Shown in pieces: positions 51,771 to 58,784 of a DNA stretch of 64,000 nt; positions within the stretch are counted from its first letter, which is position 1, and each line of letters begins with the position of its first letter. The notes under the pieces were generated by a model, which did not search any database, had not been told where the DNA came from, and saw only the letters and a program-made list of their open reading frames with translations. Source of the DNA: Escherichia coli (lineage in GTDB: Bacteria; Pseudomonadota; Gammaproteobacteria; Enterobacterales; Enterobacteriaceae); NCBI RefSeq assembly GCF_009931435.1, contig NZ_CP043414.1. One strand, written 5' to 3'. A program made the position numbers and the translations under genes.

Positions 51771-52604
51771 ATGCAGAAAGATGAGCAGACGGAATACAAA
51801 ACCGTGCGCGGCTTAACCCGCGGTCTAATGTTATTAAATATGTTAAATAAACTCGATGGCGGTGCCAGCGTCGGGCTGCTGGCGGAGCTCAGCGGCCTGC
51901 ATCGCACCACTGTGCGGCGACTGCTGGAAACGCTGCAGGAAGAGGGATATGTCCGGCGCAGTACCTCCGATGACAGTTTTCGTCTGACCATCAAAGTGCG
52001 GCAATTAAGCGAAGGATTTCGTGACGAACAATGGATTTCTGCACTGGCAGCCCCGCTGCTGGGCGATCTGTTGCGCGAAGTGGTATGGCCGACAGATGTG
52101 TCCACGCTGGATGTTGATGCAATGGTGGTACGCGAAACCACCCACCGTTTCAGCCGTTTATCTTTTCACCGGGCAATGGTCGGACGGCGTTTACCGCTCC
52201 TGAAAACCGCCTCGGGCCTGACCTGGCTGGCCTTTTGCCCGGAACAAGAACGCAAGGAGTTAATCGAAATGTTAGCCGCCCGTCCCGGTGATGACTATCA
52301 GCTGGCACGGGAGCCGTTAAAGCTGGAAGCCATTCTGGCGCGCGCACGCAAAGAGGGTTACGGACAGAACTACCGTGGCTGGGATCAGGAAGAGAAGATC
52401 GCCTCCATTGCCGTGCCCCTACGCAGTGAACAACGGGTGATTGGCTGTCTGAATCTGGTGTATATGGCAAGCGCAATGACCATCGAACAGGCAGCGGAAA
52501 AGCATCTTCCGGCGCTACAACGGGTAGCAAAACAGATCGAAGAAGGGGTTGAATCGCAGGCTATTCTGGTGGCCGGACGGCGAAGCGGCGTGCATTTACG
52601 CTAG
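51771..52604 (+). CDS. mhpR: IclR-family transcriptional activator MhpR
   Basis: ATG at 51771 gives MQKDEQTEYKTVRGLTRGLMLLNMLNKLDGGASVGLLAELSGLHRTTVRRLLETL... (277 aa); the track ORF starts at 51657. Confidence 0.9.
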   Translation: MQKDEQTEYKTVRGLTRGLMLLNMLNKLDGGASVGLLAELSGLHRTTVRRLLETLQEEGYVRRSTSDDSFRLTIKVRQLSEGFRDEQWISALAAPLLGDLLREVVWPTDVSTLDVDAMVVRETTHRFSRLSFHRAMVGRRLPLLKTASGLTWLAFCPEQERKELIEMLAARPGDDYQLAREPLKLEAILARARKEGYGQNYRGWDQEEKIASIAVPLRSEQRVIGCLNLVYMASAMTIEQAAEKHLPALQRVAKQIEEGVESQAILVAGRRSGVHLR

Positions 52605-52718
52605 TTGCGCCAATGTGTAATTTGGCCCATTCTCATCGTTATTCGCCCATTTGCCCACATGCACAGTACGGGCTGCACGCTACGCTAATGCCATCAATAC
52701 TGTGATGTGGAGCAAATC

Positions 52719-53495
52719 ATGAAAATTACTCAAATTCGTAATGCCACCCAAATTATCCAATACGCTGGCAAAACATTTCTTATTGACCCGTTACTCGCGC
52801 CTAAAGGAAGTTATCCGGGTTTTGCCGGAACGGCACGCGCAGAAATCCGCAATCCAACGGTAGAATTACCGTGCGATTTAACAACGTTACTCAACGTTGA
52901 CGCCCTAATAGTGACCCATTTGCATGAAGATCACTGGGACGAAACAGCCTCCCGCGTCGTCCCCAAAGATAAACGGATTTATGTGCAAAATGAGCAAGAT
53001 GCTGAATCACTGCATAAACAAGGATTTACGCATCTTACCGTACTTGCCGACGAGACTAAATTTGGCGATATTACTCTGCATAAAACGACAGGGCAGCACG
53101 GCTCCGATCACACCTATGCAGACCCGGCTATGGCGAAGCGTTTAGGCGCAGCCTGCGGCGTTGTTTTCCAGCACCCGACAGAGAAAACGCTCTATCTGGC
53201 TGGCGATACCCTCTGGCGTGATGACGTCGAGGCTACAATGCTAACTTTCCAACCAGAAGTGGTGGTGTTGAATGCCGGATTTGCGCATGTTCTGGGGCAT
53301 GGCGCGATAATTATGGGAGCTGAAGATATTCTCAAAACACATTTTACCCTGCCAGAAGCGCAAATTGTCGCGACACATATGGAGGCCGTAAACCACTGTT
53401 TGCTGACGCGTGATGCGCTCAAGGAATACGCCAGAGATAATCAAATTATCGAATTTGTGAACGTACCAGAAGATGGTGAAACGTTGACATTCTAA
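52719..53495 (+). CDS. Metallo-beta-lactamase-fold hydrolase, uncharacterised (258 aa)
   Basis: ATG at 52719 preceded by GGAG; MKITQIRNATQIIQYAGKTFLIDPLL... with the MBL metal-binding signature THLHEDHWDE (HxHxDH) and downstream His/Asp residues. Not part of the K-12 mhpR-lacI junction as I recall it. Confidence 0.7.
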   Translation: MKITQIRNATQIIQYAGKTFLIDPLLAPKGSYPGFAGTARAEIRNPTVELPCDLTTLLNVDALIVTHLHEDHWDETASRVVPKDKRIYVQNEQDAESLHKQGFTHLTVLADETKFGDITLHKTTGQHGSDHTYADPAMAKRLGAACGVVFQHPTEKTLYLAGDTLWRDDVEATMLTFQPEVVVLNAGFAHVLGHGAIIMGAEDILKTHFTLPEAQIVATHMEAVNHCLLTRDALKEYARDNQIIEFVNVPEDGETLTF

Positions 53496-53514
53496 TTCGG
53501 AGATAAAGAGTGTT

Positions 53515-54468
53515 ATGCGCCCGCTAACTGTTGCCATTATCGCCGTTGCCGGTTTTAGTCCTTTTCACCTTTCCGTACCGTTTATCGTGTTTAGCGAAAA
53601 AATGGCGGAGAAAAAACGCTTTCATGTAATTATCTGCGCTGAAAAGCCGGGAAACGTGGACTCTGCCGATGGGTTTTCCGTAACCGCCACCCATGACTAT
53701 ACGGCAGTCATCCAGGCGGATATTGTGATAATTCCTTACTGGGGAACAATTACACAAAAACCGCCACAAAAACTGCTGGAAGCCTTAACGACCGCACGAG
53801 ATAACGGGGCACAGATTGTCGGGCTTTGCCTGGGCACGTTTGTGCTCGGCTATGCAGGTTTACTGAACAATAAGCGTGCTGCCACGCACTGGGAGTTCGA
53901 GCGTGAATTTCAGGCACGTTTTCCACAAACACATCTGGATATTAACGCGTTGTATGTAGACGATGATGGCATTATTACCTCTGCCGGTACTGCCGCGGCG
54001 CTGGATTGCTGTTTGTATATTGTTCGGCAACATTTTGGCAGCGACTATGCTAACCATATTGCCCGACGGATGGTCGTACCGCCATATCGCACCGGCGGTC
54101 AGGCGCAGTTTATAGAGCAACCGGTGCCGAAAAATACCCATGATGAACGCATTAACCTCCTGCTGGATTACCTGCGGCAAAACATTGCGCAACAGCATGA
54201 TCTCGACTCGCTGGCTCAGCGAGTAATGATGAGTCGCCGCACACTAACCCGTCATTTTATGAAAGCGACCGGTTCGAGTATCGCCGAATGGCTCATCACT
54301 GAACGCTTACGCCGTAGCCAGGAACTGTTGGGATCCAGTCAGTTGCCCGTTGAGCGGATAGCGGCTGAGGTGGGTTTTCTCTCACCTGTGACCTGGCGTC
54401 AGCATTTTAAATCTCACTTCGGCGTCAGCCCCGCAGAATGGCGCAAAACCTTTCGTGGTATGGCATGA
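53515..54468 (+). CDS. GlxA/GbdR-type transcriptional regulator (DJ-1/PfpI-like domain plus AraC-type HTH)
   Basis: 317 aa; N-terminal DJ-1/PfpI-like region (IVGLCLGTFVLGYAGLL), C-terminal AraC-type HTH (LDSLAQRVMMSRRTLTRHF...IAAEVGFLSPVTWRQHFKSHFGVSPAEWRK). Starts 19 bp after the MBL gene, same strand. Confidence 0.75.
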   Translation: MRPLTVAIIAVAGFSPFHLSVPFIVFSEKMAEKKRFHVIICAEKPGNVDSADGFSVTATHDYTAVIQADIVIIPYWGTITQKPPQKLLEALTTARDNGAQIVGLCLGTFVLGYAGLLNNKRAATHWEFEREFQARFPQTHLDINALYVDDDGIITSAGTAAALDCCLYIVRQHFGSDYANHIARRMVVPPYRTGGQAQFIEQPVPKNTHDERINLLLDYLRQNIAQQHDLDSLAQRVMMSRRTLTRHFMKATGSSIAEWLITERLRRSQELLGSSQLPVERIAAEVGFLSPVTWRQHFKSHFGVSPAEWRKTFRGMA

Positions 54469-54504
54469 TAGCGCCCGGAAGAAAGTCAATTCAGGGTGGT
54501 GAAT

Positions 54505-55587
54505 GTGAAACCAGTAACGCTATACGATGTCGCGGAGTATGCCGGTGTCTCTTATCAGACCGTTTCCCGCGTGGTGAATCAGGCCAGCCACGTTTCAGCG
54601 AAAACGCGGGAAAAAGTGGAAGCGGCGATGGCGGAGCTAAATTACATTCCCAACCGCGTAGCACAACAGTTAGCGGGCAAACAGTCGTTGCTGATTGGCG
54701 TTGCCACCTCCAGTCTGGCCCTGCACGCACCGTCGCAAATTGTCGCGGCGATTAAATCTCGCGCCGATCAACTGGGTGCCAGCGTGGTGGTGTCGATGGT
54801 AGAAAGAAGCGGTGTCGAAGCCTGTAAAGCGGCAGTACACAATCTTCTCGCGCAACGCGTAAGTGGTCTGATCATCAACTATCCGCTGGATGACCAGGAT
54901 GCCATTGCTGTGGAGGCAGCCTGCGCTAATGTTCCGGCGCTATTTCTTGATGTCTCTGACCAGACTCCCATCAACAGTATTATTTTTTCCCATGAAGACG
55001 GTACACGGCTGGGCGTAGAGCATTTGGTCGCATTGGGTCACCAGCAAATCGCGCTGTTAGCGGGCCCATTAAGTTCTGTCTCGGCGCGTCTGCGTCTGGC
55101 GGGCTGGCATAAATATCTTAAACACAATCAAATTCAACCGATAGCGGAACGGGAAGGCGACTGGAGCGCCATGTCCGGTTTTCATCAAACCATGCAGATG
55201 CTGAATGAGGGCATCATTCCTACTGCGATGCTGGTTGCCAACGATCAGATGGCGCTGGGTGCAATGCGCGCCATTACCGAGTTCGGGCTGCGCGTCGGCG
55301 CGGATATCTCGGTAGTGGGATACGACGATACCGAAGACAGCTCGTGTTATATCCCGCCATTAACGACCATCAAACAGGATTTTCGCCTGCTTGGGCAAAC
55401 CAGCGTGGACCGCTTGCTGCAACTCTCTCAGGGCCAGGCAGTGAAGGGCAATCAGCTGTTGCCCGTCTCACTGGTGAAACGAAAAACCACCCTGCCACCC
55501 AATACGCAAACCGCTTCTCCCCAGGCGTTGGCTGATTCCTTAATGCAGCTGGCGCGACAAATTTCCCGACTGGAAAGCGAGCAGTGA
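54505..55587 (+). CDS. lacI: Lactose operon repressor LacI
   Basis: GTG start at 54505 gives VKPVTLYDVAEYAGVSYQTVSRVVNQASHVSAKTREKVEAAMAELNYIPNRVAQQLAGK...; 360 aa. Confidence 0.95.
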   Translation: MKPVTLYDVAEYAGVSYQTVSRVVNQASHVSAKTREKVEAAMAELNYIPNRVAQQLAGKQSLLIGVATSSLALHAPSQIVAAIKSRADQLGASVVVSMVERSGVEACKAAVHNLLAQRVSGLIINYPLDDQDAIAVEAACANVPALFLDVSDQTPINSIIFSHEDGTRLGVEHLVALGHQQIALLAGPLSSVSARLRLAGWHKYLKHNQIQPIAEREGDWSAMSGFHQTMQMLNEGIIPTAMLVANDQMALGAMRAITEFGLRVGADISVVGYDDTEDSSCYIPPLTTIKQDFRLLGQTSVDRLLQLSQGQAVKGNQLLPVSLVKRKTTLPPNTQTASPQALADSLMQLARQISRLESEQ

Positions 55588-55600
55588 GCGCAACGCAATT
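55580..55600. promoter_or_regulatory. lac operator O3
   Basis: GCAGTGAGCGCAACGCAATT overlapping the lacI 3' end. Confidence 0.8.
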
Positions 55601-55603
55601 AAT

Positions 55604-55619
55604 GTGAGTCAGCTCACTC
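55604..55619. promoter_or_regulatory. CRP (CAP) binding site of lac promoter
   Basis: TGTGAGTCAGCTCACT (TGTGA-N6-TCACT palindrome). Confidence 0.85.
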
Positions 55620-55635
55620 ATTAGGCACCCCAGGC

Positions 55636-55666
55636 TTTACACCTGATGTGTCCGACTCGTATGTTG
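55636..55666 (+). promoter_or_regulatory. lacZYA promoter (-35 TTTACA, -10 TATGTTG)
   Basis: TTTACA at 55636-55641 and TATGTTG at 55660-55666, 18-bp spacer; the spacer sequence differs from the K-12 version I recall. Confidence 0.8.
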
Positions 55667-55671
55667 TATGA

Positions 55672-58784
<3,113 letters not shown>

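Follow-up and report, generated by a model that had tools for sequence, protein, structure and literature searches.

Genes between mhpR and lacI

We analyzed the DNA between mhpR and lacI in a 64,000-nucleotide (nt) stretch of an Escherichia coli genome (RefSeq assembly GCF_009931435.1, contig NZ_CP043414.1; the whole stretch is called the window here) by comparison with positions 365400-368200 of the K-12 strain MG1655 (NC_000913.3). In the window, an intact regulator gene, ovrA, lies directly upstream of lacI, and the sequence that we take to be the lacI promoter falls within the last codons of this gene. All genes and tails given below with window positions are on the plus strand. The left neighbour of the interval is mhpR (51771-52604), the gene for an IclR-family activator (NCBIfam PRK09834.1-3, 346 bits, above the cutoff), whose product has 99% amino acid identity to that of K-12 mhpR; the annotation of identical loci by the Prokaryotic Genome Annotation Pipeline (PGAP) agrees with this assignment. 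It is followed by a gene for a metallo-hydrolase of the metallo-beta-lactamase (MBL) fold (52719-53495), the orthologue of Z0443, which bears its PGAP name in identical loci and matches NCBIfam PRK00685 only weakly. After a gap of 19 nt comes ovrA (53515-54468), which by the open reading frame (ORF) list and Pfam is intact and encodes a 317-amino-acid regulator with a DJ-1/PfpI domain and an AraC-type helix-turn-helix (HTH) domain. The hydrolase gene and ovrA likely form a two-gene operon, with the hydrolase gene first. The ORF of lacI (54505-55587) has a GTG start and encodes 360 amino acids with 97% identity to K-12 LacI. The same gene order, namely mhpR, MBL-fold metallo-hydrolase, GlxA-family regulator and lacI, is found in the RefSeq annotation of E. 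coli. The window very probably carries the undeleted form of the mhpR-lacI junction, comprising mhpR, the MBL-fold hydrolase gene, ovrA and lacI-lacZYA.

An earlier note, made from the sequence alone, described the regulator as an AraC-type gene belonging to an upstream cassette. The AraC part of this description stands, as the C-terminus of the protein matches the AraC-type double HTH family HTH_18 (Pfam PF12833, residues 233-311, E 3e-19), while the N-terminus is a DJ-1/PfpI domain (Pfam PF01965, residues 6-171, E 7e-12). The gene is more exactly the known GlxA/FtrA-like gene ovrA (Z0442), and the cassette is O-island 19 (OI-19). The protein has 99% amino acid identity to WP_001247692.1, which in one E. 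coli genome PGAP names 'OI-19-encoded virulence regulator OvrA' and which is placed between the MBL gene and lacI. On the evidence of its sequence, the ORF is ovrA, the orthologue of Z0442 of O157:H7. The best NCBIfam match of the ORF is FtrA (PRK09393), with 324 bits against an equivalog cutoff of 425; judged by this score, OvrA is a relative of FtrA and not FtrA itself.

In O157:H7 strain EDL933, OI-19 is a 1834-bp island with z0442 (ovrA) and z0443 (PMC8565820). The same gene pair (ovrA, Z0442, and Z0443) occupies the same place in EDL933 and in the window, with 97.8% nucleotide identity. OvrA activates ler by binding to the LEE1 promoter of the locus of enterocyte effacement (LEE) (PMC8565820; PMC10877973). 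LEE1 binding and ler activation are functions taken from the literature, and the window strain may lack the LEE. The published OvrA operator, GACATTTAATGATAATG, has its sole match in the window inside lacZ with three mismatches, and this match was taken as chance. Upstream of the hydrolase gene, at about 52623-52661, there is a conserved element common to E. coli and Citrobacter sedlakii, GGCCCAtTCTCATCGtTATTCGCCCATTTGCCCACAT, in which GCCCA(T) is present in three copies and at which OvrA or another regulator of the hydrolase-ovrA operon might have its operator. The reviews on OI-19 and OvrA that we consulted do not mention lacI in this context.

The lacI promoter and the K-12 junction

The C-terminal end of OvrA is ...PAEWRKTFRGMA-TGA, and its ORF closes with ...SPAEWRKTFRGMA and then TGA at 54466-54468. 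The final codons, gaa tgg cgc aaa acc ttt cgt ggt atg gca tga, read E W R K T F R G M A stop. The earlier note gave the ORF end (54468) and the lacI GTG (54505) correctly, but its distance of 37 bp is the offset from stop to start, and 36 bases lie between them. In this tail, the lacI -35 is presumably GCGCAA at 54441-54446, in ovrA codons Trp309-Arg310-Lys311; codons 308-311 are still within the Pfam HTH_18 match. The 17-nt spacer, between 54446 and 54464, occupies codons 311-316 and leads to a TG-extended -10 (TGg CATGAT, 54461-54469), of which the TG (54461-54462) is within Met316 and the hexamer CATGAT (54464-54469) spans Ala317 and the TGA stop. The 5' leader of lacI, which we take to be the 28 nt from G54477 (54477-54504), contains a Shine-Dalgarno-like AGGGTGG at 54493-54499. 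Steege in 1977 is said to have given the 28-nt lacI leader as GGAAGAGAGUCAAUUCAGGGUGGUGAAU, and the lacIq mutation of Calos in 1978 reportedly is GTGCAA at the -35. Read in this way, the core promoter from the -35 through the -10 is embedded in the last codons and the stop codon of intact ovrA (53515-54468), as the earlier note had proposed in placing the promoter inside an intact coding sequence.

The hexamers, the 17-nt spacing and the distance to the GTG are identical in MG1655. The K-12 lacI promoter, which is constitutive at a low level and is known for the lacIq up-mutation, is the same as that of the window across the -35, the -10 and the start site; however, it occupies a non-coding spacer of 76 nt behind mhpR, whereas that of the window lies inside an intact coding sequence, and the DNA upstream of position -41 is wholly different between the two. 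From the identical hexamers, with one change in the spacer and one in the leader, we infer that the embedded promoter fires in the window strain as in K-12. The mhpR-lacI spacer of MG1655 is tga caccatcgaatggcgcaaaacctttcgcggtatggcatgatagcgcccggaagagagtcaattcagggtggtgaat gtg, and upstream of lacI it carries tgacaccatcgaatggcgcaaaacctttcgcggtatggcatgatagcgcccggaagagagtcaattcagggtggtgaatgtg, which is exactly the sequence with the EWRKTFRGMA-stop coding stretch that the earlier note had given for K-12. Alignment of the region around 54400-54510 with K-12, which that note had proposed as a check, gave a clear breakpoint: in multiple and local alignments the homology to K-12 starts at 54436 (at 54435 when the O157-type allele, with its C at that position, is compared), and over 54436-54513 the two sequences are identical at 76 of 78 positions. 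The two differences are at 54456, where the window has T and K-12 has C in a synonymous Arg codon of the spacer, and at 54483, where the window has A and K-12 has G in the leader. The alignments show that K-12-type genomes keep a 33-nt ovrA tail (54436-54468; codons 308-317 and the stop), which forms the K-12 lacI core promoter, and lack a segment of about 1.83 kb, equivalent to OI-19, at 52605-54435 (left edge within about 10 nt).

At the K-12-type junction, the mhpR stop codon is 6 nt from the ovrA relic, and a 9-nt filler, TGACACCAT, gives K-12 mhpR its TGA stop, whereas cassette strains use TAG. A search for the source of this filler within the cassette found nothing convincing. The same junction, including TGACACCAT, is present in an Escherichia-like assembly that has only about 90% identity to E. 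coli over the mhpA-lacI interval, which indicates that the deletion is old or that it moved between lineages by recombination. In this Escherichia-like lineage (Logan ERR3985422 and ERR3985434), the -35 is GAGCAA instead of GCGCAA, and in ERR3985434 lacZ is split in two ORFs. In an ancestor of most E. coli, K-12 included, an old deletion of about 1.8 kb would have taken out the hydrolase gene, left no more of ovrA than the last 33 nt and ended 5-6 bp upstream of the -35. We also observed an inverted repeat matching at 11 of 13 positions, with its left arm at 52605-52617 (TTGCGCCAATGTG) and its right arm, which includes the lacI -35, at 54434-54446 (CAGAATGGCGCAA). One arm falls at each end of the segment deleted in K-12; the match of the left arm is poorer in the O157-type allele, and in C. 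sedlakii this arm is missing. The repeat could be a product of chance or a part of the deletion mechanism.

Tails and orthologues of ovrA in other genomes

The region is present in 5387 of 5426 complete E. coli genomes, and this frequency means orthology, not chance. The K-12-type junction with its 33-nt tail accounts for 4465 of the 5426 genomes, and the full cassette for 435, O157:H7 (97.8% identity) included. About 503 genomes are of a third type (938 cover at least 80% of 54370-54570, less the 435 with the cassette), in which a 99-nt ovrA tail (54370-54468) lies beside yaiL and the mhp cluster is missing; examples are Seattle 1946/ATCC 25922, Nissle and LF82, and CFT073 is also of this type (PMC4549013, Table 1). 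The pseudogene that PGAP calls 'GlxA family transcriptional regulator, missing N-terminus' in yaiL-type strains is this same 99-nt remnant; it is an automatic annotation, unlinked to the lacI promoter, and the 33-nt remnant of K-12 is too short to be annotated. Only about 50 of the 5426 genomes match the cassette region of the window at 99% identity or more, the nearest being strain 2017-02-2CC; given so few matches, the lineage of the window is a less-sampled one in E. coli.

Tails of other lengths were found outside E. coli. The lac plasmids of Klebsiella and Enterobacter (1277 plasmids) carry an 86-nt ovrA tail with a 1-nt frameshift and about 89% identity, which points to the capture of the plasmid lac operon from a chromosome with the ovrA-lacI junction. 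In a K. pneumoniae IncF plasmid (locus L085, 2500-2620), a small hypothetical gene and an alcohol dehydrogenase gene adjoin the 86-nt stump. The tail is 46 nt in C. koseri, 32 nt in Salmonella bongori, 12 nt in S. enterica IIIa/b and 10 nt in the K. oxytoca chromosome; at the Pectobacterium lacI locus no ovrA tail was detectable, and the Serratia LacI contig has no upstream DNA and stands outside this comparison, as does C. amalonaticus, for which there is no LacI on record. There are thus at least six different truncation endpoints, and the promoter-proximal tail is kept in all of them. Apart from the Pectobacterium locus, all lacI loci examined carry the motif TRTGGCATSAT, always equally far from the GTG. 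Among them, the E. coli-type lac loci with any upstream similarity all keep an ovrA stump, those of S. enterica IIIa/b and K. oxytoca only perhaps. In S. bongori (locus L087, 4089-6042), lacI and lacZ are about 1.9 kb apart with a YebC/TACO1-like gene on the opposite strand between them; the neighbour of lacI, both here and in C. koseri, is a gene for an mmuM-like S-methyltransferase.

Intact ovrA precedes lacI in Citrobacter. In C. sedlakii, 36 nt separate mhpR-MBL-ovrA from lacI-lacZ, and ovrA ends in ...RGMA-TGA as it does in the window; in C. rodentium, 33 nt separate MBL-ovrA (OvrA of 318 amino acids, ...RGVAS-TAG) from lacI-lacZ. The amino acid identities of the Citrobacter proteins to those of E. 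coli are 73-80% for OvrA, 76-80% for MBL and 79-85% for LacI, and these similar levels suggest common descent rather than recent import. In the C. freundii complex (loci L004, L006-L015 and L017; for example L010, 4948-5720), about 770 bp lie between ovrA and lacI, and this insert contains a 202-amino-acid S-adenosylmethionine-methyltransferase-like ORF on the opposite strand. There ovrA retains GAATGGCGCAAAACCTTTCGCGG and then ends in RGD, RGV, RGA or RGAA, and a second, diverged copy of the ovrA tail, CAAAACCgTcCcgcTGTGGCATCATAGCGCGC, lies beside lacI. That both the gene end and the promoter are kept suggests that both matter. In C. youngae ATCC 29220 there are just 151 nt between ovrA and lacI; in Citrobacter sp. 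R56, lacZ comes after the hydrolase gene and ovrA, and no lacI was detectable in between.

A scan of representative genomes gave 364 OvrA relatives, of which the best 80 loci were compared. In most of these 80 loci, which are spread over the Proteobacteria, the hydrolase gene is beside the regulator gene, co-oriented or divergent, and lacI is downstream of the ovrA relative only in the Citrobacter loci; in Aeromonas, Geomonas, Marinobacter and many Burkholderiales, ovrA relatives were found with no lacI in the fetched locus. The C-termini of all compared loci contain SP.EWR[KR]TF. In Leclercia and Enterobacter orthologues, which were compared as proteins, SPAEWRKTFR is invariant and the few residues after it differ. 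The ovrA of Kluyvera sichuanensis, with no lacI nearby, has gagtggcgcaaaacctttcaggggatggcgagcgagcgctag, ends in GMASER and, by hand count, matches the E. coli relic stretch at 26 of 30 bases. Sequence comparison therefore gives good support to the view that what remains of the ovrA C-terminus in K-12 is the lacI promoter region. This was the central suggestion of the earlier note, and it gains from the exact correspondence of the 33 nt to E308-A317 and the stop, from the conserved motif in the orthologues and from the Citrobacter synteny.

If the tail of ovrA also serves as the promoter, its synonymous sites may be under double constraint. The third-position identity between E. coli and other species was compared by group in codons for the same amino acid, Met and Trp excluded. 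With a tight junction (C. sedlakii and C. rodentium), it was 0.79 in codons 288-315 versus 0.47 in codons 1-287, and the excess in the tail had p = 0.006 and 0.001 for the two species; where an insert separates ovrA from lacI, the values were 0.58 and 0.50. The contrast between the tight and the separated groups fits promoter constraint, whereas the third group, with no lacI downstream, does not: there the tail was elevated too (0.67 in codons 288-315 versus 0.44 in codons 1-287). Taken together, these values speak neither clearly for nor clearly against a double constraint, and four further points limit our interpretation. The -35 and -10 are placed as reportedly given by Calos (1978) and the transcription start G54477, 9 nt past the ovrA stop, as reportedly given by Steege (1977), so that these positions in the window are presumptive. 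A generic consensus promoter scan of the window did not call the lacI promoter, as is expected of a -35 that matches the consensus at only 2 of 6 positions. The 9-nt filler aligns with neither flank (window about 52601-52615), so that the left breakpoint is inexact. In the scan of representative genomes, no other Escherichia species had ovrA, so that the relics and the Citrobacter loci are the basis for ordering the events within Escherichia. What the comparisons show directly is how the sequences are related, how they are distributed and which synteny they share; taking all of the points together, we put the probability that the lacI promoter of textbooks and vectors is a 33-nt stump of ovrA at about 0.85.

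Expression of lacI and origin of its promoter

The earlier note also expected coupling of the upstream genes to lacI by read-through or occlusion. A terminator or attenuator between ovrA and lacI was considered and rejected: the fold of 54420-54530 is no more stable than that of shuffled sequences (z = -0.30), there is no U-tract, and none was found in the terminator scan. An Rfam scan of 52500-55800 gave no match at E<=1. As there is no terminator after ovrA, hydrolase-ovrA transcripts would enter lacI and either add to the promoter-driven expression or interfere with it. Two sources of lacI mRNA would be expected in the window strain, namely the embedded promoter and upstream read-through, and elongating polymerases could occlude the weak embedded promoter. 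Such coupling of the upstream operon to lacI is plausible. In this respect the locus resembles the promoters within the 3' end of an upstream gene that are common in bacteria, which likewise have embedded hexamers and no terminator and for which both read-through and an internal start are expected. It differs from the usual embedded promoters in that the upstream gene was repeatedly lost and the promoter-bearing stump kept, so that the history can be read from the lengths of the relics.

A stronger form of this coupling would be that the embedded promoter is largely occluded and that lacI is transcribed mainly by read-through from hydrolase-ovrA or mhpR, with LacI following, for example, RpoS. 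Besides the missing terminator, the expression of Z0443, which is about 10-fold RpoS-dependent in EDL933 (PMC2907692), and the listing of mhpR-lacI as a K-12 operon in EcoCyc (PMC8674286) are in favor of this possibility. However, the core promoter is identical to the functional one of K-12, and none of the deletions took the promoter tail away, an argument that it is required independently of read-through; we thus regard dominance of read-through as rather unlikely. Even with the embedded promoter active as in K-12, the RpoS dependence of Z0443 suggests that LacI dosage could rise in stationary phase in the cassette-bearing strains.

A second question is how much of the promoter came from ovrA. 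One possible explanation is that enterobacterial lacI owes its entire core promoter, -35 to +1, to an ovrA coding tail with the proposed ancestral form ...EWRKTFRGMASER-stop, in which nonsense changes created the -10. In the ovrA frame, TRTGGCATSAT is G-M/V-A-S/stop; the intact OvrA of C. rodentium ends GVAS-TAG-CGC, and that of Kluyvera ends GMAS-GAG-CGC-TAG. From an ancestral tail GMASER, a change of GAG to TAG would have come first, followed in E. coli and C. sedlakii by TCA to TGA, which would turn CATCAT into CATGAT. The recruitment would have occurred when lacI arrived behind ovrA in a Citrobacter/Escherichia-like ancestor. This explanation draws on one lacI-free lineage and a stretch of about 19 nt, and we hold the chances for and against it to be equal. 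Alternatively, only the -35 and the spacer may have come from ovrA, and the -10 and the leader (TGGCATGATAGCGC...) may have arrived with lacI and supplied the last two to three codons and the stop of ovrA. S. enterica IIIa/b and K. oxytoca retain just about 10-12 nt before the ovrA stop position, which is the -10 block, and the residues after TFR vary in the Leclercia and Enterobacter orthologues, as expected if this block was carried by lacI. Yet the lacI-free Kluyvera ovrA ends GMASER*, the intact proteins of C. rodentium and C. amalonaticus type end G[VM]AS*, and these ends match GGT ATG GCA T[CG]A TAG CGC codon for codon, with the same restriction to one lacI-free lineage and about 19 nt. 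An origin of the -10 block with lacI is unlikely in our view.

In the literature, OI-19 is an O157-specific island with a virulence regulator; the present comparison suggests instead ancestral Escherichia/Citrobacter DNA, the 3' end of which doubles as the lacI promoter. Very likely, OI-19 is ancestral DNA lost by K-12 and not an insertion. The cassette consists of two ORFs, neither of them a mobility gene, and a repeat search at its edges found no flanking direct repeats and only the 11/13 inverted repeat. C. sedlakii and members of the C. freundii complex carry it at this site too, and in C. rodentium it adjoins lacI. Horizontal insertion of OI-19 into an ancestral K-12-like mhpR-lacI spacer, with ovrA borrowing its last codons from the lacI promoter, is very improbable, even though the enterohaemorrhagic E. 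coli literature calls OI-19 O157-specific (PMC8565820; PMC10877973), its guanine-plus-cytosine content is somewhat below that of the neighbours (MBL gene 47.7% and ovrA 51.3% versus 55-56%; window 51.4%), ovrA is in no representative of another Escherichia species and the K-12-type junction is old, since the supposedly borrowed codons specify a conserved AraC HTH terminus (EWRKTF) that is also found in distant lacI-free genomes and, at 26 of 30 bases, in Kluyvera, and since the Citrobacter synteny, with OvrA at 77-80%, MBL at 76-80% and LacI at 81-85% in this comparison and thus of similar divergence, the several different truncation endpoints and the lack of mobility genes and flanking direct repeats all speak against it.

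Further differences from K-12 were observed downstream of lacI. The N-terminus of LacZ in the window is about 95% identical to that of K-12 (region 54505-58784). In the lac promoter/operator (55575-55720), the CAP (catabolite activator protein) site is GAGTCAGCTC in the window and GAGTTAGCTC in K-12, and between the -35 and -10 of the lacZ promoter there are five differences (CCTGATGTGTCCGAC in the window versus CTTTATGCTTCCGGC in K-12). There are two changes just upstream of O1 and an A-to-T change beside the Shine-Dalgarno sequence. The O157-type allele of this control region is intermediate between those of the window and K-12.

The genes, the island and the promoter are each already known, and the 99-nt stump already has a pseudogene annotation from PGAP. 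In the literature that we could search, which excluded most subscription journals, no paper was found that equates the lacI promoter with the ovrA tail or describes OI-19 as ancestral. The lacI gene and its promoter are among the most used DNA in biology. Derivation of this promoter from ovrA would explain why it is a poor one, as it would be an accidental TG-extended -10 with a -35 of 2/6 match at the end of another gene, and would explain why the homology of K-12 to other strains ends 5-6 bp upstream of the -35. If OI-19 was lost by K-12 rather than gained by O157, the recruitment of OvrA to the control of the LEE would have to be read differently. In about 8% of E. coli, O157:H7 included, the dosage of LacI may be tied to the upstream operon and so to RpoS. 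The graded ovrA stumps of the Klebsiella plasmids, C. koseri and S. bongori may serve as a simple marker for the history and mobilisation of the lac operon. Furthermore, if the whole promoter was recruited from ovrA, the length of the stump would be the scar of a single ancestral home of the lac operon and of each later mobilisation, and would give a direct handle on the old question of the origin of the E. coli lac operon.

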